From: a virus
IMG/VR virus record: IMGVR_UViG_3300009788_000096
Span: 31,403 to 95,402 of that record
Reading direction: 5' to 3' (one strand)
Length of the DNA: 64,000 nucleotides
The stretch's first letter is position 1; the number at the start of each line of letters is the position of its first letter. Both the position numbers and the translations under genes were made by a program. Positions 2,512-26,942 of the stretch are shown here, piece after piece. The notes beneath the pieces were generated by a model. That model was not told where the DNA came from. It searched no databases and was given only the letters and a program-made list of their open reading frames with translations.

Positions 2512-3786
2512 ATGCCATACCAAACAGGCGTAGTAACACAATTTTTAGGAGCAAACGGATTACTTCAGAAACTTTTAGATTTTATATCAGGAACGGAAGT
2601 AACTGGAGAAACTTTATCTAGCAGCGGAGTCTCATGGTCTGGGAGTTTAGCGAGCTCTCCTGTTGGACTTGGAAGGCTTGTTATTACCTATGAATTTTCT
2701 TCAGTTGAATATGAGGCTACAGATGATGGTTCCGGAAATATCACTGGAACAAATATTTCTGCCGGTACTATCAACTATACCAATGGAGCTTACAGCATTA
2801 CTTTTACTGGCACACCGGACGCAGCGCCAACTGCCGATTATATCCACGGAGTTCCCGGACAGGATTGGCGTGTAGAATTAAACCGAACCACCAGAGATGA
2901 TGGTGGTGATGGATATACGGAACCATGTCCGGGAGCAAAGGAAGTAGTGCTTTCAAATACAGGTCTATCAGGAGCGGAAGCAGTTATTGTTGGAATCAGG
3001 GAATGCTTCTATGTGACGGAAGACTTTTATAACTGGGACTTAAACGGTTATCTGAATTTTAACGCAGCGGGTGAATGGGATCAAAACGCAATCACTCATG
3101 GGATGCCTACGTATAGTTCTACATTCGAAAGTTTTTATCGCCATCCCGGGATGGCACTTCGTAATGATACAATGAACTATTGGTTCTATTCGAATCAGCA
3201 GCGTTTTATAGTTATAGTAAAGGTTGCATCTAACTATGAATCATGTTATCTCGGCTTTGGCAGGCGATTTGGTAATCCCGGCGATTATCCTTATCCATTG
3301 TTTATCGGTGGTTGTATTAGTGGAAACAGAATATCATCTGATACTACATTGTTTCATCAATTTTTTATTCAAATAAATCGTGCAGATAATAACTGCCAAG
3401 TTTGGACTGTGACTCCGGGAACGGATTATATGACTTGGATAGGACAATCAAGCGCAAACGCGGGTCAAAGAATACTGCCTTACGGTACATGGGGAGATCT
3501 GGGTGCGCTTAACCCAACAAAGAATGGCGAACGAATAATGACTCCCGTTTATATATGCCCATATAGTTCGTTACTCGGTTCGCTATATTATGATCTGGAT
3601 GAAGTATATCATATTGCGGGCATTGGCTTACAAAGTGAAGACTTGGTTAATTATGCTGGCAGTAGGTATCGGGTATTTCAAAATATATTCCGAACAACTT
3701 ATTTTGACTATATGGCAGTAAAGGAAGGTGCCGCAGTTTCAACAACGACAACCACGACAACCACGACAACTACGACTTCAACTTAA
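2512..3786 (+). CDS. Virion structural (minor tail) protein with C-terminal poly-Thr tag
   Basis: Directly after TMP; Gly/Thr/aromatic beta-rich; ends ...AAVSTTTTTTTTTTTTST*. Confidence 0.7.
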   Translation: MPYQTGVVTQFLGANGLLQKLLDFISGTEVTGETLSSSGVSWSGSLASSPVGLGRLVITYEFSSVEYEATDDGSGNITGTNISAGTINYTNGAYSITFTGTPDAAPTADYIHGVPGQDWRVELNRTTRDDGGDGYTEPCPGAKEVVLSNTGLSGAEAVIVGIRECFYVTEDFYNWDLNGYLNFNAAGEWDQNAITHGMPTYSSTFESFYRHPGMALRNDTMNYWFYSNQQRFIVIVKVASNYESCYLGFGRRFGNPGDYPYPLFIGGCISGNRISSDTTLFHQFFIQINRADNNCQVWTVTPGTDYMTWIGQSSANAGQRILPYGTWGDLGALNPTKNGERIMTPVYICPYSSLLGSLYYDLDEVYHIAGIGLQSEDLVNYAGSRYRVFQNIFRTTYFDYMAVKEGAAVSTTTTTTTTTTTTST

Positions 3787-7757: not shown

Positions 7758-10052
7758 ATGGGATTAGTACTCGCTGCTGTTGCTGTCGCTGTTATTATCG
7801 GAGGCGCAGCTCTCGCTTATATGTTCGCAGGCAAGGGCGGAGGGCAGCAACCCGATATGTCTCCTTCAACGATGGATGACATGGATATCACTCAGGCAGC
7901 GGAAGGTTCCGTTGTTCCTGTTGTATACGGTCGTGTCCGTTTGGCTGGAAATATTATATGGTATGAAAATTTAAACACTGTCGCAGAAACACAAGAAGTC
8001 GAAACAGGGAAAGGTGGTAGCGATGAAGAGGATGTGATAACAGGTTATCATTACTACCTTGATGTTTGGCAAGCGGTCTGTCGTGGGAAGATTTCTTGGA
8101 TTGCAACCTATGTCCAAGATGAACTTAAGAATGTCAACGCAACTTTGACTTTGAAAAATGATGGAACGCAGAATACTTTTCCTTCTGCTTTACAAATAAG
8201 TTTTGGTGATGATACTCCACCGGGAGAAAACGCAAATAAACTTCCGGGCATTGCTCACGTTTTTTATAGAAAACTATATCTCGGCTTAAATGCAACCAAT
8301 GCGCCAACGATCCATTTTATTGTTGAAAAAGATTTGACTGGCATCGGAGTGACTGATCCCGAGATTGCGAATGGTTCAAATCCACATGCCATTATTTATG
8401 ATATACTTCTTGAAGCTGGAGCTCTTTCTTCCCAAATAGATATAGATTCATTTAATGCAGCTGGTCAATATTGGAAAGATAAAGGTTATGGATTAAATCT
8501 AAAATTCACGAGGCAAAGTAAAGCGAAAGAGAAGATTGCTTTTATCTTGAAGATGCTTGGTGGTGCATTCGGTGTAAATCATGAAAACAAGTTTATTCTA
8601 AAAGCATTTGATGAAAACGATACTTCTTCTGCGACTATTAATACCGAAGATTGGTTGGAGTTTCAGTTCGCCAGAAGAACTTGGTTTGATACCTTTAATG
8701 AATTCCGTTGTAACTATGTAGACCAGAATCAACACTATAGTCAAAGGACTTTGATTGCGCGGAACCCTGCTAACACTGCATTGCAGGGAAAGAAGTCTTC
8801 GGTGTCAATTGACTTGTCTGGTTTCCGTTCGAAACTTACTGCTGCTAAACGCCTATGGGAGATAATGAAAAAGGAGAGTTATCCCTATGCGAAGATAAAG
8901 GGTTCAACATCTTTAAAGCTTTATGAAACCAATGTAGGCGACATTGTAACAATAAACAATAGCGAATACAATATTGCCGATGCTGAATTTCGTGTTGTCG
9001 TAAAAGATATTTCTGAAATTGATCAAAATAAAATCGGCTGGGAACTGGAGCAATTTAGCGAAACTCTTTTCGATGACTATTATGGCTCTGGTGGGTTTCC
9101 GGGCGGAGTTCGTCCTGTTACGGTTCCAGAGAAGCTTATCCATCAAGGCGTCTATGAAATTCCTTATAATCCAGCGACGGAATATCATAGAGTTTATTTA
9201 CTCTTCGCTGCAAGGGAGAATAACTTCGAGGCAGGGTTTGAAGTGCTCTTTTCTGCGACAGGAGTTGACTATACGAGTAAAGGTATTTTCAATGCATGGT
9301 CGCAGTACGGGACTTTAGATGAAGCATACACAATAAACACTTATACTATCGATGATGAAATAGGAATTTTATATACTCCATATCGGGATGATCCGCAATT
9401 CGCAACGGGAAGCAGAACCGATTTGTTTGTGATTGATCGATATCTTTTAATTGATGATGAGATTATGAAGTTCCAAACGGTTACGGCAGAAGGGCCAGGC
9501 AGTTATCGCTTGACTGGTGTGATTCGGGGTATGTTTAATACGATTCCCGCTACGCATGGTTCTGGTTCTTCAATTTGGTTATTCAATTTAAGTGCGAGTA
9601 GTATGTTACGCAATATCTCATCATCGGATTTCTATTTGAAATTTTTACCTTATTATAAGAGCAAGAAAGTCGATCCCGGTGATGCGACGGCGATTCATGT
9701 TACGACCGTTTATAATAGGGCAAAGCAACCTTGGATTCCAACTGCTATAAAGGCGGTCAGGAGTGGGTCTGATGTAACCCTCACTATTTATACTACAACA
9801 CAAACACGCGACGGCGCTGGTAAAGCTGGGGCTGCCTCACAAACTGATTATGTACCGACAAGTGTTGACGATAAGCTGGAAGTGTATGATAGTGACGAGG
9901 GATCCGGTGCCAGTCAACTATTAACAAGTGGCGCGGATTCAAGAAGTAATGCTGGAGCATTTACTTATTACGCAAGGCAAAAGAATGGAACCTTTACTTC
10001 AAGTTGGGTTTCGGTTTATGTTGATACTGCCGATGGAATATATTGGAGCTAA
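7758..10052 (+). CDS. Central tail tip / host-specificity protein (Phage-tail_3-like)
   Basis: EGSVVPVVYGRVRLAGNIIW, NPHAIIYDIL and LTGVIRGMFNT motifs. Confidence 0.85.
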   Translation: MGLVLAAVAVAVIIGGAALAYMFAGKGGGQQPDMSPSTMDDMDITQAAEGSVVPVVYGRVRLAGNIIWYENLNTVAETQEVETGKGGSDEEDVITGYHYYLDVWQAVCRGKISWIATYVQDELKNVNATLTLKNDGTQNTFPSALQISFGDDTPPGENANKLPGIAHVFYRKLYLGLNATNAPTIHFIVEKDLTGIGVTDPEIANGSNPHAIIYDILLEAGALSSQIDIDSFNAAGQYWKDKGYGLNLKFTRQSKAKEKIAFILKMLGGAFGVNHENKFILKAFDENDTSSATINTEDWLEFQFARRTWFDTFNEFRCNYVDQNQHYSQRTLIARNPANTALQGKKSSVSIDLSGFRSKLTAAKRLWEIMKKESYPYAKIKGSTSLKLYETNVGDIVTINNSEYNIADAEFRVVVKDISEIDQNKIGWELEQFSETLFDDYYGSGGFPGGVRPVTVPEKLIHQGVYEIPYNPATEYHRVYLLFAARENNFEAGFEVLFSATGVDYTSKGIFNAWSQYGTLDEAYTINTYTIDDEIGILYTPYRDDPQFATGSRTDLFVIDRYLLIDDEIMKFQTVTAEGPGSYRLTGVIRGMFNTIPATHGSGSSIWLFNLSASSMLRNISSSDFYLKFLPYYKSKKVDPGDATAIHVTTVYNRAKQPWIPTAIKAVRSGSDVTLTIYTTTQTRDGAGKAGAASQTDYVPTSVDDKLEVYDSDEGSGASQLLTSGADSRSNAGAFTYYARQKNGTFTSSWVSVYVDTADGIYWS

Positions 10053-10056: not shown

Positions 10057-12327
10057 ATGGCAAAGCTTTCACCGACACAATTACAGAAGTTAAAATATGC
10101 CACGCAGGGCTGGAATGAAATAATGGAGCGAAATGCTCGACTGCTGGATGAAACACTTCTGAAAGTATCCGGAATGGTCGATGTCAATTTGACTTCATTG
10201 TCGAATGATGATATGCTTGTATGGGATGTACCGACCCAGAAGTTTATCAACGTTCCTTGGAGTACGATAATTGCACCTACTACTACCACAACCACTTCGA
10301 CATCAACGACGACTGCGACTTCAACGACGACTGCGACTTCAGCGTTGCTCCTGCTGATTTATTACAACATGGAATCATTGCTGAATACAACTACAACAAC
10401 GACAACCACTACAACGACTACTGTTACAACGACGAGTTTTACTTGTGCCATCGGATATTCTGGGAACTTGTGTGGGGTTCCTACAAATGCGTTCTGTTAT
10501 CAAAACTACGGCGGTTATACATGCAGTCAGGCATTTACGGATCATACTGATCCATGGGCAAGTGGTCCTGCTGATCAACAATATAGTGGTTACACTTTTG
10601 GGGTTCCTCAAATTGTTAATAAGATTGATATCCAAGCCCATACCTCTCCATACAATCGCCATCCGGTCGCTTTCCAATTCCGTGCTTCTAATGGTTCTGC
10701 ACCAACTAATCTATCAGAAGCAGAAGGTGGTACGCAGATATTGCAAGTAAAGATGGCAGGGACGTTTGACTATCCAACCCACCATAGTGTTGGTGATCTT
10801 GGCCATTGGTCTTCTGAAGAAGTCAAAACTTGGACATTTTCAAATATCACCGCATATAAACACTATTGGATATTGATGTGGGATAAGGATGAAGCTAATT
10901 TTAGTAGAGGTGCTGATTTTCATATTGGCGAAATGAATATGTATAGTTGTGGGGCAAGGCTAAGTACTACCACAACAACGACTTCTACAACAACGACAAC
11001 TATGACTGTTTGTACGACAACAACTGTTACGGTACCATTTTATAAGTGTGCTTTAGATCCAGTCGATCTGGGTGCTAATATTACTTTGCAGCATTATAAC
11101 ATGAGGGCAATCCATTCTGCTGCCAGTGCTTGGAATTCCGCTATAAGTAAATATTATACAAGAAAGAATGCTTTCGGACAGAATAAGTTTTACTTTGAAA
11201 TTGAATGTCGACCTTCTACTGATGATCAATGGATTCTCGGTCTTGCCAATGAAAGTTTCAATGTTGATGGATATCCTGGCGATAGTACAGCCGGTTGGGG
11301 TTATCGTGGAAATGGGAACAAGTATTACAATGGGAGTGCTGGAGGTTATGGAGATGCATTTGGCGATGGCGACGTTATCGGTGTAGCCTTTAACTTGCTT
11401 ACAAATAAAGTTTGGTTCTCCAAGAATGGCGCATGGCAAGCCGGTGGTGATCCTGCTGCGGGTACGGGTGAAGCATATAGTAATTTGACTGGATCACAAT
11501 TCTATGCGGCAATCGGACTTTATCAAGAAACTCATGGTCAATTAAGATTGTCTTCAGATGATTGGGACTCTGTGGCACCTTCAGGATTTGTTGAATTTGC
11601 TTGTGATGAGATTACAACAACGACTTCAACAACGACAACCTCAACGACAACCACAACAAGTTCAGTAAGCACAACAACTGTTACGGTGCCATTATATAAG
11701 TGTGCTTTTGACCCGGCTAATAAAGGTGCTTTTATTACTTTGGAATATTACAATAAACGGGCTCGGTCAACCGGTTCTAATTGGGACTCTGCGGCAAGTA
11801 AATATTATACAAGAAAGAGTGCATTCGGACAAAATAAATTTTACTTTGAATCATATCTACATTCTGGAAATAATATGATTCATGGTATTGGAAATGAAAA
11901 CCTTGTCACTACAAATTATCCGGGCAGTGATGCAAATGGTTGGGGTTATAATACTGCCAATGGTAGAAAGTATCACAGTGGCGCTTGGACACTTATTGGT
12001 AGTGCAATGAGTCAAGGCGAAACTGTTGGTATCGCAATTGACTTAACTGATTTGGATATAGGCCAAGGCAAGATTTGGTTTGCCGATCAAGGTTCATGGA
12101 TAGAAGGCGATCCTGCAGCTGGCACCGGAGCAAGTTATAGTAATTTGACTGGAGCGCAGATTTATGCGCTGATCGCTGCCTATAGTAATGGTGTAACGGC
12201 CGAACTTAGATTATCTTCTGACGATTGGGTCCAGTCCGCTCCGTCGGGATTTGTTGAATTTGCTTGTGTTGAGATTACCACCACAACGACAACAACGACA
12301 ACCACTACAACGACAACTACAACATAG
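10057..12327 (+). CDS. Tail fibre/adhesin: anchor + discoidin-like domain + two SPRY domains, joined by Thr tracts
   Basis: Two SPRY-like repeats (KFYFE...YPG.D..GWGY...G[DE].[IV]G.A...K.WF); five Thr-rich tracts including 16 terminal Thr. Confidence 0.75.
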   Translation: MAKLSPTQLQKLKYATQGWNEIMERNARLLDETLLKVSGMVDVNLTSLSNDDMLVWDVPTQKFINVPWSTIIAPTTTTTTSTSTTTATSTTTATSALLLLIYYNMESLLNTTTTTTTTTTTTVTTTSFTCAIGYSGNLCGVPTNAFCYQNYGGYTCSQAFTDHTDPWASGPADQQYSGYTFGVPQIVNKIDIQAHTSPYNRHPVAFQFRASNGSAPTNLSEAEGGTQILQVKMAGTFDYPTHHSVGDLGHWSSEEVKTWTFSNITAYKHYWILMWDKDEANFSRGADFHIGEMNMYSCGARLSTTTTTTSTTTTTMTVCTTTTVTVPFYKCALDPVDLGANITLQHYNMRAIHSAASAWNSAISKYYTRKNAFGQNKFYFEIECRPSTDDQWILGLANESFNVDGYPGDSTAGWGYRGNGNKYYNGSAGGYGDAFGDGDVIGVAFNLLTNKVWFSKNGAWQAGGDPAAGTGEAYSNLTGSQFYAAIGLYQETHGQLRLSSDDWDSVAPSGFVEFACDEITTTTSTTTTSTTTTTSSVSTTTVTVPLYKCAFDPANKGAFITLEYYNKRARSTGSNWDSAASKYYTRKSAFGQNKFYFESYLHSGNNMIHGIGNENLVTTNYPGSDANGWGYNTANGRKYHSGAWTLIGSAMSQGETVGIAIDLTDLDIGQGKIWFADQGSWIEGDPAAGTGASYSNLTGAQIYALIAAYSNGVTAELRLSSDDWVQSAPSGFVEFACVEITTTTTTTTTTTTTTTT

Positions 12328-12335: not shown

Positions 12336-13610
12336 ATGAAAAAGTTTCCTGACATTCAAGCGAATTATCCGGGTCGAGCATTTGGCGTCGTTCAAACGAC
12401 TACCAGACCTCTGCTCGGTACTTATAGCTTTGACTTCGACGGCACGGACTTTATAAGAACTGTAGTCCATCCCGGAACCGATATCAATATTGCGATTTCA
12501 TTATGGATTCGTTTTGATACGGTTCCAACGGATGCAGTCAATAGACCTGTTGCTATAATGAGTAATAGTGATGGAACTAATTCTGGTCTTGGATTAGTCA
12601 AAGTCACCGGAGCCGCAAGAGTTCATATGGTTCGTTCTGCAAATGGAGCTGCCGGAGCTTATGAAGTAGACGATCAAGCAACTCCCGGTTCTGGCTTTGC
12701 GGTTTCTCCTAATACTTGGTATCACATGGTTGTGCAGAAGACAACTACGAATTTTGAACTTTGGGTCAATGCTGTTAAGGTTCTTGATCGAGCCGGCTCC
12801 TTTGGCAATGCCGATGCGACCGGATTTGATGGATTACTTCTTGGCTCTAAAACAGATAATTCAAATGGAATCGACGGGAAGATTGATCAAGTCAAAGTAT
12901 TTGATCTTGGTACCAGCGGCGGTTTAGCTCAAAGTCAAATTCGTGAGTTATATTTTGAAGGTGCAACAACGACAACTACTTCAACGACAACCACGACAAC
13001 CACGACAACTACTTCAACAACGATTGATCTTTGTCCTGGTGGATATTCCTCTGAATTATGTACTGATGGGGTAAACAGGGCATTTTGTCGTCAGACCTAT
13101 GGTGGTTATCAATGTTCCTGGGCTTTTGATGGTAACTATAATAACCCGTGGGTGGGTGGTACATTAGATCAGCAATACGTTGGTTACAGTTTCGTCGTTC
13201 CACAAATTGTCAATAAATTTTCTATTCTTGCATATAATGGTTCGACATTTCCGAGGACGCCGGATGCTTTCCAACTCCGTGCTTCTAATACTGCTGCCCC
13301 AACTAATTTAACAGAAGCTGAGGGCGGTACATTAATCCATCAAGTAAAGATGCCGGGAACGTTTGACTACCCAACCCATCATACTGTTGGTAACCTCGGG
13401 CATTGGAGTCAAGGCGAACTTAAATCTTGGGAATTCGATAATGGCATTGCATATAAACATTATTGGATGCTGTTCTGGGACAAAGATGAAAACGACTTTG
13501 GTCGGAGTGGGGATTATAATTTTGGTGACCTCAGTATGTATAGCTGCGGCCCACGTTTAACAACGACAACCACGACAACCACGACTTCAACGACAACTAC
13601 TTCATCATAA
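12336..13610 (+). CDS. LamG/ConA-like lectin + discoidin-like domain virion protein with Thr tracts
   Basis: FDFDGTD, ISLWIR, NTWYHMVV, LWVNAV and DGKIDQVKVF LamG motifs. Second domain is paralogous to that in 10057..12327. Confidence 0.75.
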   Translation: MKKFPDIQANYPGRAFGVVQTTTRPLLGTYSFDFDGTDFIRTVVHPGTDINIAISLWIRFDTVPTDAVNRPVAIMSNSDGTNSGLGLVKVTGAARVHMVRSANGAAGAYEVDDQATPGSGFAVSPNTWYHMVVQKTTTNFELWVNAVKVLDRAGSFGNADATGFDGLLLGSKTDNSNGIDGKIDQVKVFDLGTSGGLAQSQIRELYFEGATTTTTSTTTTTTTTTTSTTIDLCPGGYSSELCTDGVNRAFCRQTYGGYQCSWAFDGNYNNPWVGGTLDQQYVGYSFVVPQIVNKFSILAYNGSTFPRTPDAFQLRASNTAAPTNLTEAEGGTLIHQVKMPGTFDYPTHHTVGNLGHWSQGELKSWEFDNGIAYKHYWMLFWDKDENDFGRSGDYNFGDLSMYSCGPRLTTTTTTTTTSTTTTSS

Positions 13611-13618
13611 GGTGACTA

Positions 13619-13828
13619 ATGACTATACTATCACCCAGCGGTTTGGAAACGGACGATTATAGCCAAGCAAATTGGTGGGCAATCTATAACAGAAATGTGG
13701 AACTGTTGAATGCTGTTTTGATAAAGTTGCAGGGATTGGGAGACGTAAAGGTAGACAAGTTAAAAGATGACAGTTTTCTTTTCTGGGATGATGCTAATTC
13801 GAAATGGAAAGTGGGGATTTATCCATAA
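13619..13828 (+). CDS. Small virion protein, paralog of the fibre N-terminal anchor
   Basis: LSPSGL...W..IYNRN.ELL...L.KLQGLGDV...L.DD.FL.WD....KW aligns with the N-terminus of 10057..12327. Confidence 0.65.
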   Translation: MTILSPSGLETDDYSQANWWAIYNRNVELLNAVLIKLQGLGDVKVDKLKDDSFLFWDDANSKWKVGIYP

Positions 13829-14109
13829 TGGCAACCTATTATACATTGACTAACACTGGTTTGCGTTATTCTGATATTGGTTATTCTGCATGGAATGTCA
13901 ATGTCAATAACTATAACTGGAGCGCGCTCAATAATACTCTCTTGAAGTATTCGGCTTTGTTAGACGTTGATCCCACTGGCTTAGTTCAAGGCGACGTTTT
14001 AATATATAACTCATCTTCTGAAAAATGGGAAAGGAAAGCTTTAAACCCTGGCTATCACGTGATCAGTACAACGACAACTACGACTTCTACTACTACGACT
14101 TCGACATAA
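13828..14109 (+). CDS. Small virion protein: fibre-anchor paralog plus C-terminal poly-Thr tag
   Basis: TAATG coupling at 13828; LNNTLLKYSALLDVD...GDVLIYN....KW; ends STTTTTTSTTTTST*. Confidence 0.65.
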   Translation: MATYYTLTNTGLRYSDIGYSAWNVNVNNYNWSALNNTLLKYSALLDVDPTGLVQGDVLIYNSSSEKWERKALNPGYHVISTTTTTTSTTTTST

Positions 14110-14117
14110 GGAGCGGC

Positions 14118-14651: not shown

Positions 14652-14659
14652 GCAAGGAG

Positions 14660-14947: not shown

Positions 14948-14979
14948 TAAAAAATTCAATAAGAAGGAGGTGAAGTTAA

Positions 14980-15387: not shown

Positions 15388-15428
15388 CCTCAACCGAAAT
15401 TTAATTTCTGAAAAAGGAGCAATTTAAA

Positions 15429-16616: not shown

Positions 16617-19367
16617 ATGACAATCCAAGAATTAGATATGGAAAATGGCGATTATGATTTGACTTCATTAATTACCGTGTTAACTCATATTCCCGATGCC
16701 GATAATGCTATGGAATGTCGAGCTCTCGTATTTTTTGGTGATGGCACTAAGAATCTTGATGGCACAGGTGGAAACTTCAATGTTGTCATAACTATTGGGA
16801 GTCAAACATTACAGCCCAGTCCGAAGGTTTATACCTTTGGAACGGAAGTACGATCTGCTCTCCGCACTGATCCATTTACTGTCCCCGCAAACGAACAAGT
16901 TATAGTCAAAGTTCTATCTCCAAATGGTGCTGATACAGATGTTGATGTCACAGCATATCTTCATAGTGACAATGTTGCAAACGACGTTTGGGATGAATTA
17001 CTTACAGGCGGAACTCATAATATTGCGACAAGCGCAGGACGCCGGCTCCGGACTTTACAAGATTTCGGTCTTTATGAAGGCGGAGCGGTATGGGTTGATA
17101 CGGTGAATGGTGTCGCCGGAACAGTCAATTTTGAAAACGGGGTAGTAAACAATCCTGTGGATAGCATTGCAGATGCGAAGACAATAGCAGACAGCATCGG
17201 GCTCAAAACAATCCATTTCCTTGCGGGATCGTCTGTAACTCTTGCAGAAGCATTTGACAGCTTTGTTTTTGAAGGAATGGCATATACGGTTGATTTAAAC
17301 GGACAGTCTGTTAATGGGACATGGTTTCAAAGAGCGACTATTGTTGGAAATGACGATGGTTCAAATACGATTCCGACACGTTATCTTCGTTGCATAATGG
17401 GAAACAATACTCTCGGGTTATCATACCTTGGAGATTGTGCGTTTGAAGGGGATTTGGTGTTGGCGCAAGAGGGCACCTATATTACAGATCGTTGTTTGTC
17501 AGCAGTTGCCGGAACAGAAACTCCGTCCATTGATTTTCAAAACGAGAACGAAAATAAATATTTGAACATGCGCCATTATTCTGGAGGGATTGAAATTAAA
17601 AACTTTGGTCATGGGACAGCAGATCACCATATGTCACTTGAGGGTGATGGTCAGCTTGTCTTTAATTCGAATTGTTCAAATGCCAATGCCGGTGATGAAC
17701 TCGCTATTCGTGGAAATTTTACTATCACTGATAATGTAGGTGGTGGATGGGCTGGCACATTATCTGATGATGCCAGATTTGACTCTGTGGAATTAGTGGA
17801 TAACGTTTGGGATGAATTACTTACGGGTGGAGCGCATAATATTCCGACTTCTGCGGGAAGAAGATTGCGCGAAATTGCAGGCACTGTTATTGCTTCTGAT
17901 ATTGCGCAAGGTCCGGGCACTGGAAACAATCAAATTCAATTGGCTGCCGCCGCTTCCGCAGTTGACGGCGCTTATGATCCAGCGATGGTTGTAATAATGT
18001 TAGGGACAGGAGCAGGACAAAGCCGATTAATTTATGAGTATGACGGCGCAACCAAAATTGCAACTGTAGATCGAAATTGGAAAGTAAATCCAAGTACCGA
18101 TAGTGAATATGTTCTCTTCGGCCATCCAGGAAGAGAACACGTTAACGAAGGACTTGCTCAAGCCGGATCAACGAGCAGCACGATTAAGTTAAATTCACTG
18201 GCAAGTGATCAAGATAATATTTACAATGGGCAGATGGTTTTTATCCGGTCAGGTACTGGAGAAGATCAGGTTGGGCTTGTGAAGTCATACGTTGGAGGTA
18301 CTAAAGTTGCAACGATGTGGGATAACTGGGGCGTAACACCTGACGGTACAAGCGGTTACGTAATGATGCCGATGGATATGCGACCAGAAACCATAGCAAG
18401 AGGAGTTTGGGATAGATTAGTTGCGAGTCATTTAACTTCTGGAAGCGCAGGTTTGGCTCTGATGCATACCACTTATGGTAGTGTAGTTCATATTGATACG
18501 GTTGGCGGCAGTGCAGGTACAACGTATCCAAAAGGCACAGTTGAAGATCCAGTGGATAATTATGCCGATGCAAAGATAATAGCGACAACGTATGGTTTAG
18601 AAGAGTTTCACTTGCTCAGCAATTTGACTCTTGGAGCTTCTGATAATGCAGATAATTTTAAATTTTCCGCTCCGACTGGTATTAATATTATATTAACAGT
18701 AACTTCAGGTTGCAGTACAATCAATACAACTTTTGAACGATTGGTTCTAACAGGCACATTAGATGGTGGTGTTTGGATAGAACGATGTAGTATTGCGGGA
18801 CTGAATGACATTCAAGGATTTGTACTTGAATGTATATTTTTGGCAAATAGTTCTCTTACTGGTCCTTCTTCTACAGTAATGTATAATTGTGGCACCGCAG
18901 TAGTAGCCCCACCGATTACATTGGGTTTAAACAGTTCACCACTAACTATGGCAGGTTGGAAAGGCGGACTAAAAATAGGAAGCAAAATTGGTTCTCAAAA
19001 TATTATAATAGATTTATTGTCCGGCACTTTGGAAATTGCTTCAACTTGCACTGCTGGAAAAATAATTGTCAAAGGCATTGGGCATATAACAGCAGATAAC
19101 TCAGGTGCTAACTGCATTATAGACACCACCGATTTAATAAAGGCAAGTCATATTGACTTCATGAAAAATATAGAAGGCGGACGTTGGAGAATTAATCATA
19201 TAACTCATCAAATGTTATTCTACAAAGAAGATAATGTTACGGAAGTTGCGCGGTTTAATTTATTTGATCATGCTGGAATCCCAGCGTCTGAAAACGTATA
19301 CGAAAGAGTTCGAGTGACAACCACAACAACTACAACAACCACTACTACTACCACAACATCAAGTTAG
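16617..19367 (+). CDS. Large repeat-containing putative virion protein with C-terminal poly-Thr tag
   Basis: Repeats VWDELLTGG.HNI.TSAGRRLR x2 (plus a degenerate third) and duplicated GTG.GQ/DQ and V.[IV]DTV.G.AGT modules; ends in T14-SS*. Confidence 0.65.
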   Translation: MTIQELDMENGDYDLTSLITVLTHIPDADNAMECRALVFFGDGTKNLDGTGGNFNVVITIGSQTLQPSPKVYTFGTEVRSALRTDPFTVPANEQVIVKVLSPNGADTDVDVTAYLHSDNVANDVWDELLTGGTHNIATSAGRRLRTLQDFGLYEGGAVWVDTVNGVAGTVNFENGVVNNPVDSIADAKTIADSIGLKTIHFLAGSSVTLAEAFDSFVFEGMAYTVDLNGQSVNGTWFQRATIVGNDDGSNTIPTRYLRCIMGNNTLGLSYLGDCAFEGDLVLAQEGTYITDRCLSAVAGTETPSIDFQNENENKYLNMRHYSGGIEIKNFGHGTADHHMSLEGDGQLVFNSNCSNANAGDELAIRGNFTITDNVGGGWAGTLSDDARFDSVELVDNVWDELLTGGAHNIPTSAGRRLREIAGTVIASDIAQGPGTGNNQIQLAAAASAVDGAYDPAMVVIMLGTGAGQSRLIYEYDGATKIATVDRNWKVNPSTDSEYVLFGHPGREHVNEGLAQAGSTSSTIKLNSLASDQDNIYNGQMVFIRSGTGEDQVGLVKSYVGGTKVATMWDNWGVTPDGTSGYVMMPMDMRPETIARGVWDRLVASHLTSGSAGLALMHTTYGSVVHIDTVGGSAGTTYPKGTVEDPVDNYADAKIIATTYGLEEFHLLSNLTLGASDNADNFKFSAPTGINIILTVTSGCSTINTTFERLVLTGTLDGGVWIERCSIAGLNDIQGFVLECIFLANSSLTGPSSTVMYNCGTAVVAPPITLGLNSSPLTMAGWKGGLKIGSKIGSQNIIIDLLSGTLEIASTCTAGKIIVKGIGHITADNSGANCIIDTTDLIKASHIDFMKNIEGGRWRINHITHQMLFYKEDNVTEVARFNLFDHAGIPASENVYERVRVTTTTTTTTTTTTTTSS

Positions 19368-19372: not shown

Positions 19373-20002
19373 ATGATGGCAGTTAAAAGACAAAGTTTAA
19401 AAGGAATTGGAAAGAAGAAGAAAGCTCGCAAAGCGGCAGCTGCACAAGGGCAAATGACGCGATGGTTGAAGCCGACTGGGAATTGGAGCATGGCATGGGA
19501 TGTATCAATTACTACAGGCACAGATATTACTCCCAGCGAAAGATTAAAGGAAAAATACACTTGGTGGGATGATAAGTATAGCATCGTTGCGCAGGAAGTC
19601 GCTGCTCCTCCGGGATTCGGGATTTCCTTTAAGTTTAAACCTGTTCCCAAAACACATGACTTTTATGTTGACTTCGTTGGTCATTATACTGGTACGCATT
19701 CCGGCCCACATTTCCCGCGTGTTGAAATTTGGGATTATAATACGACTGCATGGGTTGATACAGGTATAGAACTGGATCTCACCATGAGCGAAGATCAAAG
19801 TCTTACTTCTAACCTTATAGATAAAACCGGAGATTGGTGGGAAGCAGTAACCGATAATGTCTGGTTACAACTTGCGCATCCTAATGTTGCTGGTAATGCA
19901 GCTCATGAGATTCATGTAACCAAAATGGGCTTGAGGCAAAAAATAGTAATAACAACCACAACCACTACAACGACTACGACAACCACAACGACATCGAGTT
20001 AA
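19373..20002 (+). CDS. Hypothetical (putative virion) protein with C-terminal poly-Thr tag
   Basis: SD AGGAG; beta-rich; ends in a long Thr run then SS*. Confidence 0.6.
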   Translation: MMAVKRQSLKGIGKKKKARKAAAAQGQMTRWLKPTGNWSMAWDVSITTGTDITPSERLKEKYTWWDDKYSIVAQEVAAPPGFGISFKFKPVPKTHDFYVDFVGHYTGTHSGPHFPRVEIWDYNTTAWVDTGIELDLTMSEDQSLTSNLIDKTGDWWEAVTDNVWLQLAHPNVAGNAAHEIHVTKMGLRQKIVITTTTTTTTTTTTTTSS

Positions 20003-21161: not shown

Positions 21162-21296
21162 ATGGCAACTACTACCACTACAACAACAACGACCACTTCT
21201 ACGACGACGACAACAATAATTCCGTCTGGCGATCCTAAATTGATTTTTATACATGATGAAGTCAAAAAAGTTTTCAAATATCAAAAGAAAGAATAA
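21162..21296 (+). CDS. 44-aa peptide with N-terminal poly-Thr (not in ORF track)
   Basis: MA-T10-S-T5-IIPSGDPKLIFIHDEVKKVFKYQKKE*; ATG follows the upstream stop after 1 nt; mixed ACN codons. Confidence 0.6.
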   Translation: MATTTTTTTTTTSTTTTTIIPSGDPKLIFIHDEVKKVFKYQKKE

Positions 21297-21339: not shown

Positions 21340-21429
21340 ATATTATAGAAATGTCTTCAATAATGAAGACAAACCGCCACTCATAACCGTGACCCCATAG
21401 GGGAATCACAAATGAAAAGGAGAAGTCAA

Positions 21430-22755
21430 ATGTTTAAACCTCAGAACGTAGCCATCCTCACCAACTTCCAAGATTTCAATCCCGGCTATTCCCTGTCAGG
21501 AATCGTAGCGGACCAATGTATAATGCTTGATCGCTACGGCCACAAAGTTCATCTTTATACTTGTGATAGTTATAATGATGAATTCGATGATGTTGACCTG
21601 CCATGTGAAGTACACCGAAAAATTCCGTTTTGTCACCTTACCGATTACAAAGAGGAAAAGGATTTTTCCAAGGAACACGAGATGTATGGCAAAACGTTGA
21701 AGAATGTTTTGGTGGAAGAATTCAAGACGAAGAAAATCGAGATTGCTTTTACTCATGATTGGATTTTCACCGGATGGAATCTTCCGTTTTCTTATGGTAT
21801 CCGCCTTGCCAACCCACATCTGGGTGGAGTCAATTGGATGCATTGGGTTCATAGCGTTCCTTCTGATCTTGAATATCCGCAAGGTAGGGATTGGTGGGAT
21901 ATTAGGAGATATGGCCCGAATCATAAAATTATTTTCCCCAATGCCATCGAAAGAACCCGGGTGGCCGAACAGTTTAAAGGACAAATTGATGATGTCCGTA
22001 TAATCCCGCATATCAAGGATCTGCGAACATGGTATGACTTTGATGAGGAAACATGGGAATTCATAGATGACTTCCCCGGCGTAATGCAAGCGGACATTGT
22101 GCAAATCTATCCGGCTTCCACTGATCGTCTTCGTGCGAAACAGATCGACATGGTTGCAAATCTTTTTGCTCGCTTTAAAGAAAAAGGTTTTACTGTTTGT
22201 CTTGTCGTTGCAAACCAATGGGCAACCGAAAAAGAGCAGGAAAAAGATATCCAAAACTTTTTGGATCTTGCACCTAAACTGGGATTGAAGCCAAATGAAG
22301 AATTGATCTTTACTTCGGCATGGAAAGATGGCAAGTATAATACCGGTCTACCGAAGAAGATATTGAGGGAGCTGCAATTATGTTCCAATATTTTCGTCTT
22401 CCCAACGGTAGAGGAATCATTTGGTCTGGTTGGACCGGAGGCTGCGCTTGGTGGTAACTTCATGGTTCTAAACAAAAGTCTTTATATGATGTTCGAGATA
22501 TTTGGGAACTCTGGACTTTACTGTGATTTCGGTTCCTACCATAACATCTTCGATCCTAAAAATATTGGAATTACTATGGATCAATATCTGGCAGGGGTTT
22601 GTAATCTGATTCTGGGGAGGTTTTCACAGAATGAAGTATTTCAAACCCGGACTTGGTGTCGAAGAGTTTATAATATGGATAACCTATATAATCAAGTCTA
22701 CCAACCGTTGATGGCAGAGTCCCGTCTGTGGGGCTTCCCCACCAAAGCATTATAA
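21430..22755 (+). CDS. Glycosyltransferase, GT-B fold (GT4-like)
   Basis: SD AAGGAG; NIFVFPTVEESFGLVGPEAA is the GT4 EX7E motif. Confidence 0.85.
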   Translation: MFKPQNVAILTNFQDFNPGYSLSGIVADQCIMLDRYGHKVHLYTCDSYNDEFDDVDLPCEVHRKIPFCHLTDYKEEKDFSKEHEMYGKTLKNVLVEEFKTKKIEIAFTHDWIFTGWNLPFSYGIRLANPHLGGVNWMHWVHSVPSDLEYPQGRDWWDIRRYGPNHKIIFPNAIERTRVAEQFKGQIDDVRIIPHIKDLRTWYDFDEETWEFIDDFPGVMQADIVQIYPASTDRLRAKQIDMVANLFARFKEKGFTVCLVVANQWATEKEQEKDIQNFLDLAPKLGLKPNEELIFTSAWKDGKYNTGLPKKILRELQLCSNIFVFPTVEESFGLVGPEAALGGNFMVLNKSLYMMFEIFGNSGLYCDFGSYHNIFDPKNIGITMDQYLAGVCNLILGRFSQNEVFQTRTWCRRVYNMDNLYNQVYQPLMAESRLWGFPTKAL

Positions 22756-22765: not shown

Positions 22766-23986
22766 ATGGAGATAACCATTAAGTCATTTAACGGCATTGG
22801 TGATTTACTTTTTGTAACTCCAACGCTGAAAGTAATTAAGGAGGCCTATCCTGATTGTCATATAACAGTCAATACTAATTATCCGGACTTGTTGGAGGAC
22901 AATCCAAACGTTGACGTGATTGGATCTGAGAACGTAGGAACGTTTCTGGGGTACGATGATCCAATTCACCAGAAATGGCCGACAGCGCATCATATATTAA
23001 AGGACTGGCATATAATCTGTGAAGAATATGGCCTGCATACTGATAAGCCAGCGCTGCAACCAGAACTTTATCTTAATTTTATGACGGCACTGGATGTGCT
23101 TGAAAAACATCGATCCCCAATAGGAGTGCAAATTATACACAAGGGGCATTGGCATGCAAAAAAGATTTGGCCTAAATTTGATTATCTTTCGCGGCTCCCT
23201 AAGTTTGTGCCAATTCCAAAGGTGCCTTCGATTAAGGATTTGATTTACTTCATTGCTTGTTGCAAGGCGGTAGTATGCGCTGAAGGTGGAATCTCACATA
23301 TCGCAAAGGCAGTAGGAACACCAGCGATAGTCATTTACGGAGGCTTTGCCAAACCGGAATGGAATGGTTATGAAGATCAAATAAATGTTTGCAATGAAAA
23401 ATGGTGTTCCTATTGTTACAACCCGAAACCATGCGAAAATGAAATTGAAAGAATTTGCATGAAAGAAATTTCAATCGAACACGTTTGCCGGCTGGCTGAA
23501 GGTTTGGAAAAGATTCCAGAGCTTGAACAACACAATGCAATGAAGTTTATAAAAGAAGATGCTTTATGTTGGTCAAGAACCTGCTCTTCCCATAGACCCG
23601 ACATGTTAGATATCGGTGCTGGCAATAATCCCTTGCGTGGCGCGAGAGGGATAGATACAGGTAAAGATGAAGATGCTTATAACATCTACACAGCGGATCG
23701 TTCGCAAGATTTTATCTTCTCTTCCCATTGCATCGAGCATTTGGATTATCCTTCTAAAGCTTTGAGAGAATGGAGCAGAGTGCTTCGTACCGGCGGTCTG
23801 CTTTATCTTTATTTCCCGTCGCCGGATTATATACCTTGGAGACAGAAGTCAATGCCGAAATGGCATAAGCATGATTTTCGCATTGAAAGTATTTTGGCAA
23901 TGCTCCCCGACGATTTATACCCAATTGAAATCGCCCATACAGATTGGTTCTTCGGTCAAAAAATTATAGCGAGAAAGGAAAAGTAA
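22766..23986 (+). CDS. GT9 (heptosyltransferase-like) glycosyltransferase fused to a class I SAM methyltransferase
   Basis: GIGDLLFVTP, EGGISHIAKAVGTPAIVIYGG and CSYC..CMKEIS (GT9); LDIGAG, DFIFSSHCIEH and RVLRTGG (MTase). Confidence 0.85.
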   Translation: MEITIKSFNGIGDLLFVTPTLKVIKEAYPDCHITVNTNYPDLLEDNPNVDVIGSENVGTFLGYDDPIHQKWPTAHHILKDWHIICEEYGLHTDKPALQPELYLNFMTALDVLEKHRSPIGVQIIHKGHWHAKKIWPKFDYLSRLPKFVPIPKVPSIKDLIYFIACCKAVVCAEGGISHIAKAVGTPAIVIYGGFAKPEWNGYEDQINVCNEKWCSYCYNPKPCENEIERICMKEISIEHVCRLAEGLEKIPELEQHNAMKFIKEDALCWSRTCSSHRPDMLDIGAGNNPLRGARGIDTGKDEDAYNIYTADRSQDFIFSSHCIEHLDYPSKALREWSRVLRTGGLLYLYFPSPDYIPWRQKSMPKWHKHDFRIESILAMLPDDLYPIEIAHTDWFFGQKIIARKEK

Positions 23987-23987: not shown

Positions 23988-24770
23988 ATGGCTAAAAAAA
24001 TGATCAAGAAGCAAAAACTTAAATGCACGGCGGAGGGTTACAAAGAAGCATTGAACCGGGTGAGGGCTGCGGAAGATCCTGTTGATGCGCTTTGCAAATT
24101 TTATAATGAAACAGTCGGGATGAAAAAAGGCCGGACGGTTTTCGATACGCAATTTGTTCCGTTCATCGAGAAGTATGGATGTGACAGGGAAATAAGTTTG
24201 GAGATTGGCTATGGCCCCGGTTCTCTTGTGGCCGAAGCAGGGAAGCATTTCCGTGAGACATGGGGGATAGATGCTCATGAGGCACGGAATCTGGTTGGCC
24301 ATTTGTTGGAAGCAAATGAATGCTATAACTATAAACTCCTTATCAGTCCTGATGGAAGAAGTATTCCCACGAAGAAAAATAACATTGACTTCATTTATTC
24401 ATGGACTGTTTTTATGCACTTCGGGAAAATCGGTATCGCCAGTGATTATCTTCGTGATGCCTATGCGGTTTTGAAACCGGGAGGTCTGGCGCTCATTTAC
24501 TTCTCCAGAATGTATCGAAGTCGAAAGCATGAAACAAAAGAGGAATGGCTGGCTGCAATTGAGCACGAAGAGGAAATGGAACGGTATCGAGAGATTAGTG
24601 GCAGTACAATCCAAAAGATTAATCTTCAAATCTCCATGCAGCAAATGGTTGATATGTGCGAATGTGTCGGTTTTGAAGTCTTGGAACGAACGGCATCGAC
24701 CAGAAGAATCGACGGAATACTTTGCCACCACGGTCAACATGGGGTAGTACTTCGAAAAGAAAAGGAGTAA
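23988..24770 (+). CDS. Class I SAM-dependent methyltransferase
   Basis: LEIGYGPG, WGID, DFIYSWTVFMH, VLKPGG. Confidence 0.85.
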   Translation: MAKKMIKKQKLKCTAEGYKEALNRVRAAEDPVDALCKFYNETVGMKKGRTVFDTQFVPFIEKYGCDREISLEIGYGPGSLVAEAGKHFRETWGIDAHEARNLVGHLLEANECYNYKLLISPDGRSIPTKKNNIDFIYSWTVFMHFGKIGIASDYLRDAYAVLKPGGLALIYFSRMYRSRKHETKEEWLAAIEHEEEMERYREISGSTIQKINLQISMQQMVDMCECVGFEVLERTASTRRIDGILCHHGQHGVVLRKEKE

Positions 24771-24773: not shown

Positions 24774-25496
24774 ATGAGAGAAAAAGAAGTTGCAGTTGTG
24801 GCAATGCCAAGGACAGGCTCCACATATCTTTTTAGATGCTTGGCTGGTCTCAAGCATGCAGGTGGAAGTCCGAAAGGCGCCAACCTTGCAAAGCTTCCAA
24901 TAATGAAGTGCCACAGTTTAGCTCCACCCGAAACTTTCGGTGATCCGTGGTCAAGCCAAATAAGTGAGCATTGTCTTAAAGGAAGAAAAGTCATTTGGCT
25001 TTTCGGTGATCCAATAGCTTCTGTCGTTTCCACAATGAAGAAAAGGTTTGACCATGTTCATGCGAAGAATTGTGGCTGCTTTAAACCGCTGGGGATGGTG
25101 GATCTGATAGATAGAGATGACTTTAACTATGAGTGGATGTTTGACTCATGGACATCTATCCGACATGACTTTCCCGTTTTATGTGTAAGGTATGAAACCT
25201 TATGGAAAAACCGTTTTGTGATCGAATGGTTTCTGGGAAGAAAAGTCAAATGGAATGAGTGGAGTCCTCGGTCTAACAGGTGGACCACAGAAGAACTTCC
25301 AAACTTTCTTTCGAAAGCCTTAAATAAAACCTATTCAAGTTTGGTTGAAAAAGTTCAAATGCATCCGGATGTAACTTTAAATGGTGGAGATACATTGAGA
25401 ATATCCGGGGATTTGGTAAGGATAGAAAAAGGCGTTGGATTTGGCAAAAACTATTTTTATGACTTAGTAAAAAAAGGAGAAACGGAAAATGGCTGA
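24774..25496 (+). CDS. Sulfotransferase-like protein
   Basis: AMPRTGSTYL (5'-PSB), KCH, GDPIASVVS, VRYETL. Confidence 0.75.
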   Translation: MREKEVAVVAMPRTGSTYLFRCLAGLKHAGGSPKGANLAKLPIMKCHSLAPPETFGDPWSSQISEHCLKGRKVIWLFGDPIASVVSTMKKRFDHVHAKNCGCFKPLGMVDLIDRDDFNYEWMFDSWTSIRHDFPVLCVRYETLWKNRFVIEWFLGRKVKWNEWSPRSNRWTTEELPNFLSKALNKTYSSLVEKVQMHPDVTLNGGDTLRISGDLVRIEKGVGFGKNYFYDLVKKGETENG

Positions 25497-26541
25497 GCTG
25501 TCAATTATTGTACCGTATGTGAACGAGTATCCACAAATCCTTTTTACACTTCAAAGTATTGCGCAAGACCTACGAGGTCGCGTTGACTTTGAAGTCATTG
25601 CTGTAAACAACTATTGCGATGAAGTCATTGCTCAAGATCGCGATAGCACAAGACGAATCATTCGAAGATTAAAAGCATTTTACAATATCGAGGCTTCAGA
25701 TGAAGAAATTGTTGAAACATTGGTCGGTGAAGAAATTGGACTCATTGGGCCAGAAGATAAAGGTGGCAAGGCAGTAGAAGCATGTGCTAAAGGGAACGAC
25801 TGGCTTACGGCGATTTCATACACGGACAAGTTAAGTCATTGGAATGCGAAGCGTTTCGGCATTGAAAATAGCAGTGGTGATTATTTTCAATTCATTGATT
25901 CCCATTGCATCGTCGGCCGGAATTTGCTGTATGATATGTTTGACTTTTATAAAGATAACGCTTGGAGCATGGATGGCACGCTCCATCCGCCCTTGACATA
26001 TCTCATTTTGGAATGGCGAAGATTAATATATGGATTAAGATTTGTCCATACCGAAAAACAAGCGCAACTTGACTATAAGTTTTCGAGTTACCAACATCCC
26101 GAGAGTGGCTTGCCATACGAGGTTCCGTGTATGTCGACTTGTGGTATGCTAATGACTCGGGAGCTATACGAAGAAACTGGTGGCTGGCCTAAAGAACTGG
26201 GAATTTATAGTGGAGGCGAGCACTTCATGAATTTCACCCTTGCTGTTCTTGGAAAGAAGAAGTATATCTTTCCAACTAAATTTGCGTTGTATCATCATGC
26301 CGAAAAAAGAGGATATGCTTTTAACTCCGGTGATACTCTTCGCAATCGCTTAATAGCAGCATATCTATACGGTGGCCTTGATTGGTTTTATGAAAATATA
26401 AAGAAGTGTAAAGGTCGGCCAAATGTGATTAAGAAGTTTCAAGCGGAGATTCCATTATTGTGCAAAGATCAGCGGCAATGGATTAAAGATCGACAAGAGA
26501 TGACTATATTCGAATGGCTGGAAAAGTGGGGAAAGATATGA
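25489..26541 (+). CDS. GT-A glycosyltransferase (GT2 superfamily) with polypeptide GalNAc-transferase (GT27)-like motifs
   Basis: SIIVPYVNE...TLQSI, FIDSHC (DxH), PCM...GGWPKELGIYSGGEHFMNF...YHHAEKRGYAF. Confidence 0.8.
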   Translation: MAELSIIVPYVNEYPQILFTLQSIAQDLRGRVDFEVIAVNNYCDEVIAQDRDSTRRIIRRLKAFYNIEASDEEIVETLVGEEIGLIGPEDKGGKAVEACAKGNDWLTAISYTDKLSHWNAKRFGIENSSGDYFQFIDSHCIVGRNLLYDMFDFYKDNAWSMDGTLHPPLTYLILEWRRLIYGLRFVHTEKQAQLDYKFSSYQHPESGLPYEVPCMSTCGMLMTRELYEETGGWPKELGIYSGGEHFMNFTLAVLGKKKYIFPTKFALYHHAEKRGYAFNSGDTLRNRLIAAYLYGGLDWFYENIKKCKGRPNVIKKFQAEIPLLCKDQRQWIKDRQEMTIFEWLEKWGKI

Positions 26542-26942
26542 AAAAAGAAACGGATTATAAAAGCTACCTTGACTCTCTTGAAGAAAAAGTAATTATCCCT
26601 GGAATCGTTTCTGGTGAACTGTGCAAGAAAAGAAAAGTTCCCGCAAGAAAAGGCAAGCTGTATAAAAGCGATTTCGGAAAATTTGTAGGCGAGTCATTCG
26701 ATTGTAAGGATGCAGCTGCCATAGATTATTACGGGTACTTTAAAAAATCGAGTGGCTTCAAGCCTCTAATTACTTCGTACGAAGACATTGAAGTCAAGTC
26801 AATAAAGATAAAGGTTTGCCATTTCGCTTCTATCAAAATCGAATACGTATCAAAGATGGCACCGGAGTTGATGGAGGAGTTCTTTAACTTCAAAGGCTAT
26901 TTACTTCTCTTGAGGGGATTTAAGAGCGGGAACTTTGACTAA
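26538..26942 (+). CDS. Hypothetical protein (last gene of + arm)
   Basis: ATGA overlap with the GT stop. Confidence 0.55.
   Translation: MKKETDYKSYLDSLEEKVIIPGIVSGELCKKRKVPARKGKLYKSDFGKFVGESFDCKDAAAIDYYGYFKKSSGFKPLITSYEDIEVKSIKIKVCHFASIKIEYVSKMAPELMEEFFNFKGYLLLLRGFKSGNFD

Follow-up and report, generated by a model that had tools for sequence, protein, structure and literature searches.

A GT27-like glycosyltransferase of an uncultured tailed phage and its poly-threonine-tailed protein neighbours

Why would a tailed phage carry an enzyme resembling the polypeptide N-acetylgalactosaminyltransferases (ppGalNAc-Ts) of glycosyltransferase (GT) family GT27, and what would such an enzyme glycosylate? 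Mucin-type O-glycosylation initiated by GT27 enzymes is regarded as a eukaryotic Golgi process of animals and some protists, and in the literature we found no relevant description of GT27-like enzymes from phages or prokaryotes or of phage proteins tagged with poly-threonine. The question is raised by a gene in IMG/VR record IMGVR_UViG_3300009788_000096, a complete tailed phage of 95.4 kb. We analysed a stretch of 64,000 nucleotides (nt) inside this genome (positions 31,403 to 95,402 of the record, in the following called the window), in which the first 20 kb or so of the + strand contain tape-measure and tail genes, and both GC-skew and the orientation of the genes change over near 27 kb. The DNA probably stems from a subsurface metagenome, the label of the only sequencing run in which its glycosylation cassette was found. 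An earlier note, made from the letters of the window alone, had described the gene product as a phage GT-A enzyme with the motif set of eukaryotic ppGalNAc-Ts and as the transferase that initiates glycosylation of threonine in peptides. We found that the protein has GT27-like fold and motifs and that seven particle proteins with poly-threonine tails are encoded just upstream; the phage therefore probably sugar-coats its own tail, although the first sugar could come from a partner enzyme.

Sequence, fold and catalytic residues of the GT27-like protein

The gene in question is the following:

25489..26541, + strand: GT27-like soluble GT-A glycosyltransferase of 350 amino acids (aa); key residues D137-x-H139, E244 of SGGEH, H269 and K273-R274-G-Y276

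It forms an open reading frame (ORF) preceded by a Shine-Dalgarno-like AAAGGAG, and its start shares 8 nt with the 3' end of the upstream gene 24774..25496. The motif strings quoted in the earlier note are present in the translation: SIIVPYVNE/ILFTLQSI at residues 5–24, NAKRFG...SSGDYFQFIDSHC at residues 119–140, PCMSTCGMLMTRELY..GGW..ELGIYSGGEHFMNF at residues 213–249 and the distal motif, in the form HHAEKRGYAF, at residues 269–278. Residues 44–90 or so form a helical insertion confined to the window's clade. Strand beta1 opens the protein, which has no membrane anchor or transmembrane segment and no signal peptide (maximum 19-residue hydropathy 0.82).

With the single sequence as query, the generic GT2 family PF00535 was the only Pfam family above cut-off, and the PDB returned one match, ppGalNAc-T10, at E 0.06. 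PF00535 does not discriminate between GT2 and GT27, since it is found in 100% of the members of chordate ppGalNAc-T clusters as well as in 38/38 members of the phage family. No PHROGs or NCBIfam model matched the protein, and tblastn against 50,697 deposited phage genomes gave no match. Metagenomic relatives numbered 689 at E <= 0.001, none of them with a functional name; the best 120 of these 689 share 44–78% identity with the protein. An exhaustive profile search across 1.84 billion entries yielded 123 representatives at E <= 1e-30 and 235 at E <= 1e-10, and nearly all of the 150 listed representatives are 300–410 aa long. When a profile built from the 38 family members was run against the PDB, ppGalNAc-T10 was matched at E 1.9e-5 and the six best matches all belonged to GT27 (T10, TgGalNAc-T3, T7, T4 and PGANT9A/B). 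TarP, the first bacterial GT2 enzyme in the ranking, followed after these six chains at 1.5e-3, a modest margin of GT27 over GT2.

The AlphaFold model of the protein (pLDDT 94, pTM 0.91) was compared with known structures by Foldseek and by VIA-align, a Foldseek-independent fold scan across 48,161 chain representatives. In Foldseek the matches listed down to rank 50, of at least 498 significant ones, were all GT27, with E from 1e-15 to 5e-12. VIA-align gave Z 26.2 for GalNAc-T1 (284 residues, 3.0 Å) and Z 25.0 for TgGalNAc-T3 (280 residues). After a gap followed WrtF (19.4), heparosan synthase (19.2), K4CP (18.8) and SpsA (18.3), and the teichoic-acid enzymes TarS and TarP were found at Z 17.4 and 17.0; no GT-A family outside GT27 exceeded 19.4, with about 220 residues aligned. 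Between the two assignments that the earlier note had set side by side, GT27 is hence the closest, and the protein does not cluster with GT2 enzymes of polysaccharide or lipopolysaccharide (LPS) synthesis. Because TarP, TarS, SpsA, K4CP and heparosan synthase all lie about 7 Z lower, we regard it as GT27-like and not as a generic polysaccharide or LPS GT2. The description as a phage GT-A enzyme with the GT27 motif set is borne out by profile, fold and residue alignment, and the GT27-like identity of the phage family is strongly supported.

Invariant in all 38 members are D137, H139, G242-G243-E244, H269, H270, R274 and Y276. HMMER places D137-x-H139 on the DSHC of T10, T4 and PGANT9, the GGE on the WGGEN of GalNAc-T4 and PGANT9, and H269-H-G-E-K273-R274-G-Y276 on GH(V/I)F(P/R)KR.PY of GalNAc-T4, PGANT9 and TgGalNAc-T3. 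Two features that the earlier note had singled out, DxH in place of DxD and a distal H...K.GY.F block, are corroborated by this conservation and, as far as the alignment can tell for the distal block, have their counterparts in GT27. Both the DxH and the C-terminal His are retained in the most divergent family members and in a paralogue bearing PF02709. The replacement of DxD by DxH is confined to GT27 and GT60, both GT-A families that O-glycosylate Ser/Thr of polypeptides, and in GT27 the C-terminal His coordinates the metal (Taujale 2020, PMC7185993).

Around the invariant E244 the family motif reads Y-[GS]-G-G-E-[NH]-F-x-N-[FY]. The earlier note had held that W and N of WGGEN are unconserved and that the donor sugar may differ. 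This is right for the Trp, which is an invariant Tyr in the phage family. It does not apply to the Asn of the family as a whole: directly after GGE, 24/38 members (58/76 in the loci) have Asn, 12/38 have His and 1/38 has Asp, the His being specific to the window's clade. The argument for a different donor consequently rests on a clade-specific His, while most of the family keeps GGEN. In the inverting family GT7 the catalytic Asp directly follows GGE, where GT27 has Asn. Since the phage family has Asn or His at this place, a retaining mechanism appears likely. The GT2-type combination of DxD with an acidic base at the xED position, a catalytic-base position assigned by analogy with GT7, is absent from the family, which has DxH and, in 36/38 members, Asn or His after GGE.

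The whole 350 aa align to residues 115–425 of GalNAc-T1. As the earlier note had stated, there is no ricin B-type lectin domain; the catalytic domain uses the entire length of the protein. A search for longer relatives found two, P0121 and P0122, both of them tandem GT-A fusions. Together with P0124 they represent rare metagenomic forms of 600–740 aa that match the GT27-like family. In P0121, which carries the motif IWGGGENF and passes the cut-off of the Gal/GalNAc-T model PF02709 (27.0 versus 23 bits), the partner half joined to the family domain also has a DxH (IDSH), and P0124 (601 aa) contains two stretches that match the family.

The GT60 domain is represented in Pfam by PF11397; none of the 38 members matched this model at E <= 1, a search in which HMMER filters can drop very weak matches. 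To our knowledge no GT60 structure has been solved. The ESM Atlas contains uncharacterised families of about 300 aa from Bacillota and Actinomycetota that combine GT2 with PF02709 and reach TM 0.74–0.76, compared with 0.72–0.74 for chordate ppGalNAc-Ts. They are like the phage family in length and in lacking a lectin domain and differ in being cellular. As these bacterial families are as close to the phage model as the chordate enzymes, a wider prokaryotic clade of such enzymes probably exists.

Poly-threonine tracts in the phage and across the family

The GT27-like gene belongs to a cassette of glycosylation genes (listed below). Upstream of this cassette seven late ORFs contain 12 Thr-dominated tracts encoded by mixed ACN codons, and six of the 12 form the very C-terminus of the protein:

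2512..3786, + strand: structural protein of 424 aa with C-terminal S-T12-S-T (residues 410–424), phrog_687

10057..12327, + strand: fibre-like protein of 756 aa with poly-Thr in five tracts, one of them a C-terminal T16

12336..13610, + strand: protein of 424 aa with two poly-Thr tracts, the first internal and the second C-terminal

13804..14109, + strand: small protein with an N-terminal module of about 65 aa and a C-terminal poly-Thr tail

16617..19367, + strand: late protein of 916 aa with C-terminal T14-SS

19373..20002, + strand: late protein of 209 aa with C-terminal T14-SS

21162..21296, + strand: ORF of 44 aa with N-terminal M-A-T10-S-T5, coding status uncertain, within the 725-nt gap that precedes the GT4-like gene and is otherwise empty

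In the complete genome we counted 45 (ACN)x8 runs, all of them + strand runs located from 30.6 to 52.6 kb of the genome, shortly before the start of the cassette at 52.8 kb; neither (ACN)x8 runs on the other strand nor occurrences of a reversed control pattern were found. With these 12 tracts in seven ORFs, candidate poly-Thr acceptors are abundant next to the GT27-like gene.

The N-terminal module of about 65 aa (..NW..LNNTLLK.SALLDVD..GL..GDVL.YNS...) is directly followed by poly-Thr. It occurs in the window in the small protein of 101 aa (13804–14109) and in the 756-aa fibre (10057–10260), and twice in the related phage contig L081 (6682–6900 and 10421–10693), where the product of 10421–10690 is 53% identical to that of 13804..14109. 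The module may serve in attachment and carry a glycosylated stalk.

For comparison we assembled 77 IMG/VR loci with the GT27-like family as well as 38 whole contigs of at least 50 kb that carry it, 17 of them near-complete. Poly-Thr is by far the commonest homopolymer in the 77 loci. Within 10 kb of the GT27-like gene a T-rich ORF is present in 41/77 loci, and 59 of the 60 such ORFs lie on the strand of the glycosyltransferase gene. A perfect T9 run was detected in 22/38 whole contigs, always on one strand, compared with 2/38 for the control pattern. In the reverse direction, 26 searchable contigs were picked for a T12 run alone from among the matches listed by an (ACN)x12 scan, and four of them carry a strong member of the GT27-like family. 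As the family is present on fewer than about 100 of 2.9 million contigs, the enrichment on T12 contigs is very large, its estimate being a rough one. In a cross-tabulation centred on the GT4-like gene of the cassette, poly-Thr occurs in 27/37 loci with the GT27-like gene and in 3/7 without it, a difference that does not discriminate. Contigs were also gathered by way of the tail protein 7758..10049, for which a locus search with the single protein found nothing and one with a four-sequence alignment succeeded; most of these contigs are fragments, and a two-by-two comparison of the GT27-like gene with poly-Thr on them was uninformative.

Members of the GT27-like family come from phage contigs; cellular genomes yielded none except on seven contigs of metagenome-assembled genomes (MAGs; L185–L191). 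Four of the seven belong to Desulfobacteraceae or "Deltaproteobacteria" bins, the other three to one bin each of Thermoplasmatota, Thorarchaeota and Proteobacteria. These contigs are probably phage or provirus, and the bins may hint at the host range.

Several observations weigh against a GT27-like enzyme that acts on poly-Thr. Sequence similarity to GT27 is weak (profile E 1.9e-5 as given above, identity 13–17%), PF02709 is matched by only 2/38 members and weakly so, and in the automatic look-alike search of the ESM Atlas the phage model is matched as closely by the bacterial GT2+PF02709 families as by the chordate enzymes. A perfect T9 run is missing from 16/38 whole contigs, including 8/17 near-complete ones; some of the 16 have less perfect T-rich tracts. 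Poly-Thr is therefore not an obligatory partner of the enzyme. Conversely, 20 of the 26 viral contigs with a T12 run have no match to the GT27-like profile, and a complete 83-kb phage (L081/G002) combines poly-Thr fibres and a GT4-like gene with no member of the family. In L024, an 80-kb phage, the GT27-like gene lies downstream of genes for RecA, a 5'-3' exonuclease, a PDDEXK nuclease and an Mre11-like phosphoesterase (1091–10942) instead of following tail genes. Finally, we found no RNA runs that hold the cassette. With these points taken into account, a protein-O-Thr role of the GT27-like enzyme still appears probable from the motifs and gene neighbourhoods described.

The glycosylation cassette and the enzyme that adds the first sugar

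The cassette is co-oriented with the late structural genes and directly downstream of them, with gaps between its genes of -28 to +10 nt. In the order GT4-like, GT9-like/methyltransferase, methyltransferase, sulfotransferase-like, GT27-like and orf142 it contains, in addition to the GT27-like gene:

21412..22755, + strand: GT4-like GT-B glycosyltransferase of 447 aa, first gene of the cassette; profile matches BshA at 1e-6, generic GT4 fold

22766..23986, + strand: fusion of a GT9 (heptosyltransferase-like) domain with an S-adenosylmethionine (SAM) methyltransferase (PF01075 2.9e-11, PF08241 6.5e-10); in 9/77 loci

23988..24770, + strand: SAM-dependent methyltransferase (PF13489 and PF08241, about 5e-8); in 9/77 loci

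24774..25496, + strand: sulfotransferase-like protein, weak match (PF00685 2.8e-4, below the Pfam cut-off)

26514..26942, + strand: orf142, conserved small protein; in 23/77 loci, often adjoining the GT27-like gene on either side

Hydrophobic segments are absent from all of the products, and Pfam, NCBIfam and hydropathy revealed no flippase or polyprenol-phosphate glycosyltransferase among them. The complete phage genome has no epimerase/dehydratase of the short-chain dehydrogenase/reductase (SDR) type (PF01370), and the sugar donors would therefore come from the host. The GT4-like and GT27-like genes bracket a variable island of tailoring genes for glycan diversity. Within it, the GT9-like domain of the fusion protein is matched by NCBIfam heptosyltransferase models below their cut-offs only. 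GT9-like enzymes include the protein O-heptosyltransferases of autotransporters, and by analogy the fusion may represent a third transferase directed at proteins. The cassette is accompanied by sulfotransferase-like genes, which suggests that the glycans may be sulfated; the counterpart in L081 (15101–15775, - strand) passes PF13469. An SDR of the UDP-sulfoquinovose-synthase type is absent from the window's phage genome (no PF01370 match), and genes for the synthesis of 3'-phosphoadenosine-5'-phosphosulfate were not searched for. The product of orf142, for which Pfam, PHROG, NCBIfam and the Atlas gave no match, could be an accessory or specificity subunit.

The claim of the earlier note that the GT27-like protein is the initiating transferase for peptide-O-Thr stands in part. 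The enzyme is GT27-like, lectin-less and encoded beside poly-Thr; as the candidate for adding the first sugar it has a rival in the GT4-like protein, which is encoded in 36/38 of the whole contigs with the GT27-like gene and in 60/77 loci. The GT4-like gene is always located upstream of the GT27-like gene, first in the cassette and with variable cargo in between, and this near-constancy favours an order in which Thr receives its first sugar from the GT4-like GT-B enzyme and the GT27-like GT-A enzyme extends or caps the sugar-peptide. Among known bacterial enzymes the GT4 members GtfA (4pqg) and SdgB (7ec1), both protein-O-GlcNAc transferases, initiate O-glycosylation on low-complexity Ser-rich repeats, and both occur among the fold matches of the GT4-like model. 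However, the list of matches is a flat one of generic GT-B folds in which GtfA ranks 25th and SdgB 31st at Z of about 12, and the GT4-like protein has no acceptor domain of the DUF1975 type. Moreover, the GT-A enzyme resembles the peptide-directed GT27 enzymes and not the GT-A families that extend sugars.

Genomes in which one of the two genes is missing occur on both sides. In G053 (93% complete) and G071 (100% complete) the GT27-like gene occurs together with poly-Thr and a GT4-like gene is lacking, which argues against the GT4-like enzyme as the one that acts first. G071, a complete genome of 55 kb also represented by locus L067, encodes poly-Thr lectin-fold proteins followed by three GT-A genes and no GT-B (7252–10906). 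This trio consists of a GT2+PF02709 protein with DxH, a GT2-methyltransferase fusion with the architecture of gp108 from mycobacteriophage Che8, and a member of the GT27-like family.

L081/G002 represents the opposite case, since poly-Thr and a GT4-like gene are present there and the GT27-like family is absent. It encodes a 1167-aa fibre of repeated domains joined by long poly-Thr linkers, and its cassette (6682–15775) comprises a distant GT4-like gene, a PF03407-like transferase, an SDR epimerase/dehydratase, a methyltransferase, a mini-GT2 with DxD and the sulfotransferase mentioned above. The support that this genome lends to the GT4-like enzyme is tempered by the fact that its GT4-like protein is only 24% identical to that of the window and is accompanied by other GT-A genes. 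The small GT-A genes of L081 were considered as members of the GT27-like family and were rejected (hhalign probability < 3%). As these natural deletions point both ways, we see the case for the GT27-like enzyme as the initiating transferase on Thr as evenly balanced, and consider initiation by the GT4-like enzyme unlikely, though it has to be reckoned with.

Other acceptors, a possible mechanism and known systems

The acceptor may also be looked for outside of the particle. The cassette could remodel a glycan of the host envelope or another non-protein acceptor (LPS, teichoic acid, capsule or a small molecule), for instance in superinfection exclusion, the poly-Thr tracts being flexible linkers. 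The public annotation of relatives as 'glycosyltransferase involved in cell wall biosynthesis' fits this explanation, as do PF00535 as the sole Pfam family above cut-off, the 16/38 contigs without a perfect T9 run and the many poly-Thr viral contigs without the family. All cassette proteins are soluble, however, with no flippase, polyprenol-phosphate glycosyltransferase or membrane partner among them, and the cassette directly follows the late structural genes in the same orientation. In addition, the strong same-strand link with T-rich ORFs (59/60) and the distance of about 7 Z between GT27 and the GT2 enzymes of polysaccharide and teichoic-acid synthesis argue against an envelope acceptor, which we consider improbable. 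That the GT27-like enzyme glycosylates modified bases in phage DNA, as the RecA, exonuclease and nuclease genes next to it in L024 might suggest, is barely credible given that in 60/77 loci the gene lies in a glycosyltransferase/methyltransferase cassette after the tail genes, that the nearest folds are those of peptide-directed GT27 enzymes and that no DNA glucosyltransferase is among the best 50 entries of the fold scan.

For the preferred explanation, a GT27-like enzyme that glycosylates threonines of the phage's own particle proteins, the following mechanism can be proposed. The enzyme would be a soluble, cytoplasmic, metal-dependent and probably retaining GT-A glycosyltransferase, a counterpart of the GT27 catalytic domain without lectin domain and anchor. 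D137, H139 and H269 would be the ligands that place a divalent metal, probably Mn2+, at the diphosphate of a UDP-sugar supplied by the host, the donor likely being a UDP-N-acetylhexosamine (UDP-HexNAc). E244 of the GGE[N/H] motif and the PCMSTCGM segment are predicted to line the sugar pocket, and the loop after H269 (HH-x-E-K-R-G-Y) may close over the donor and form a groove for an extended peptide. The putative acceptors are Thr hydroxyls of the poly-Thr tails and linkers on late phage proteins (tail, fibre and structural proteins), which would receive their sugars in the cytoplasm of the host, ahead of assembly or while it proceeds. Extension and decoration of the glycan could then fall to the GT4-like enzyme and to the variable cargo (GT9-like/methyltransferase, methyltransferase and sulfotransferase-like proteins), resulting in a mucin-like brush on the virion.

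Among known systems GT27 itself is the closest (mouse GalNAc-T1 8v9q, human T2/T4/T10/T12, Drosophila PGANT9 and Toxoplasma GalNAc-T3). The likeness consists of the superposition of the catalytic domain, DxH, the C-terminal His, the GGEN-type motif and K-R-x-Y, and extends to the candidate acceptors of the phage enzyme, which are Thr-rich mucin-like tracts. In contrast to GT27 the phage enzyme lacks the ricin-type lectin domain as well as a stem and a membrane anchor, and its predicted location is the cytoplasm instead of the Golgi; the uracil-binding DD is [D/N]-N in the phage family, and the Trp of WGGEN is replaced by Tyr. GT60 (polypeptide and hydroxyproline alpha-GlcNAc-transferases of Dictyostelium, Trypanosoma cruzi and some prokaryotes) resembles the phage family in having DxH and no lectin domain, O-glycosylates Ser/Thr-rich polypeptides and stands beside GT27 in GT-A clade 5 (PMC7185993); the phage family differs by its lack of a GT60 Pfam match.

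According to the parts of the literature available to us, virion glycosylation has been experimentally shown in mycobacteriophages only (Che8, Corndog and Myrna; Freeman et al. 2023 as cited in PMC11256854 and PMC12363180). There, as in the system proposed here, the phage carries genes for glycosyltransferases and methyltransferases that modify proteins of its own capsid and tail inside the cytoplasm of the host. The Che8 enzymes are unrelated, however, and the pair of GT27-like and GT4 enzymes is not found there: by Pfam, gp108 is a GT2-methyltransferase fusion, gp109 a small GT2 and gp110 GT25-like, and hhalign of gp109 and gp110 against the GT27-like family gave a probability below 1%. We know of no homopolymeric Thr tags in mycobacteriophage glycosylation. 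GtfA/GtfB, acting on serine-rich-repeat adhesins, and SdgA/SdgB, acting on SD repeats, share with the proposed system the cytoplasmic initiation on repetitive tracts of hydroxy amino acids and the extension by other glycosyltransferases. Enzymes of the GtfA/SdgB type differ in being GT-B enzymes that act on Ser and have an extra acceptor-binding domain, and the GT4-like protein of the phage is not particularly similar to them.

In its furthest-reaching form the proposal would mean that a large group of uncultured tailed phages run true mucin-type O-glycosylation in the cytoplasm of bacteria. In this pathway a lectin-less ppGalNAc-T homologue would load alpha-HexNAc densely on poly-Thr tags of proteins of the tail, the fibres and the head, further steps would lengthen the glycan, methylate it and perhaps sulfate it, leaving a mucin-like brush on the virions, and the phage family would be sister or ancestral to the eukaryotic GT27 enzymes. 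We regard this full version as tentative and, taken as a whole, rather unlikely. If it were true, mucin initiation would not be a eukaryotic invention, since the phage family would be sister or ancestral to GT27. A compact phage family of minimal, soluble GT27-like enzymes with poly-Thr acceptor tags at hand would in itself bear on the origin of both GT27 and GT60. The reader enzyme of a homopolymeric Thr tag would become directly testable, and a lectin-free scaffold of 300–350 aa would become available for the study or use of peptide O-glycosylation in bacteria. For the phages themselves it would amount to a second, widespread route by which particles are coated with sugar, with effects on adsorption, stability and the sticking to or shielding from surfaces.

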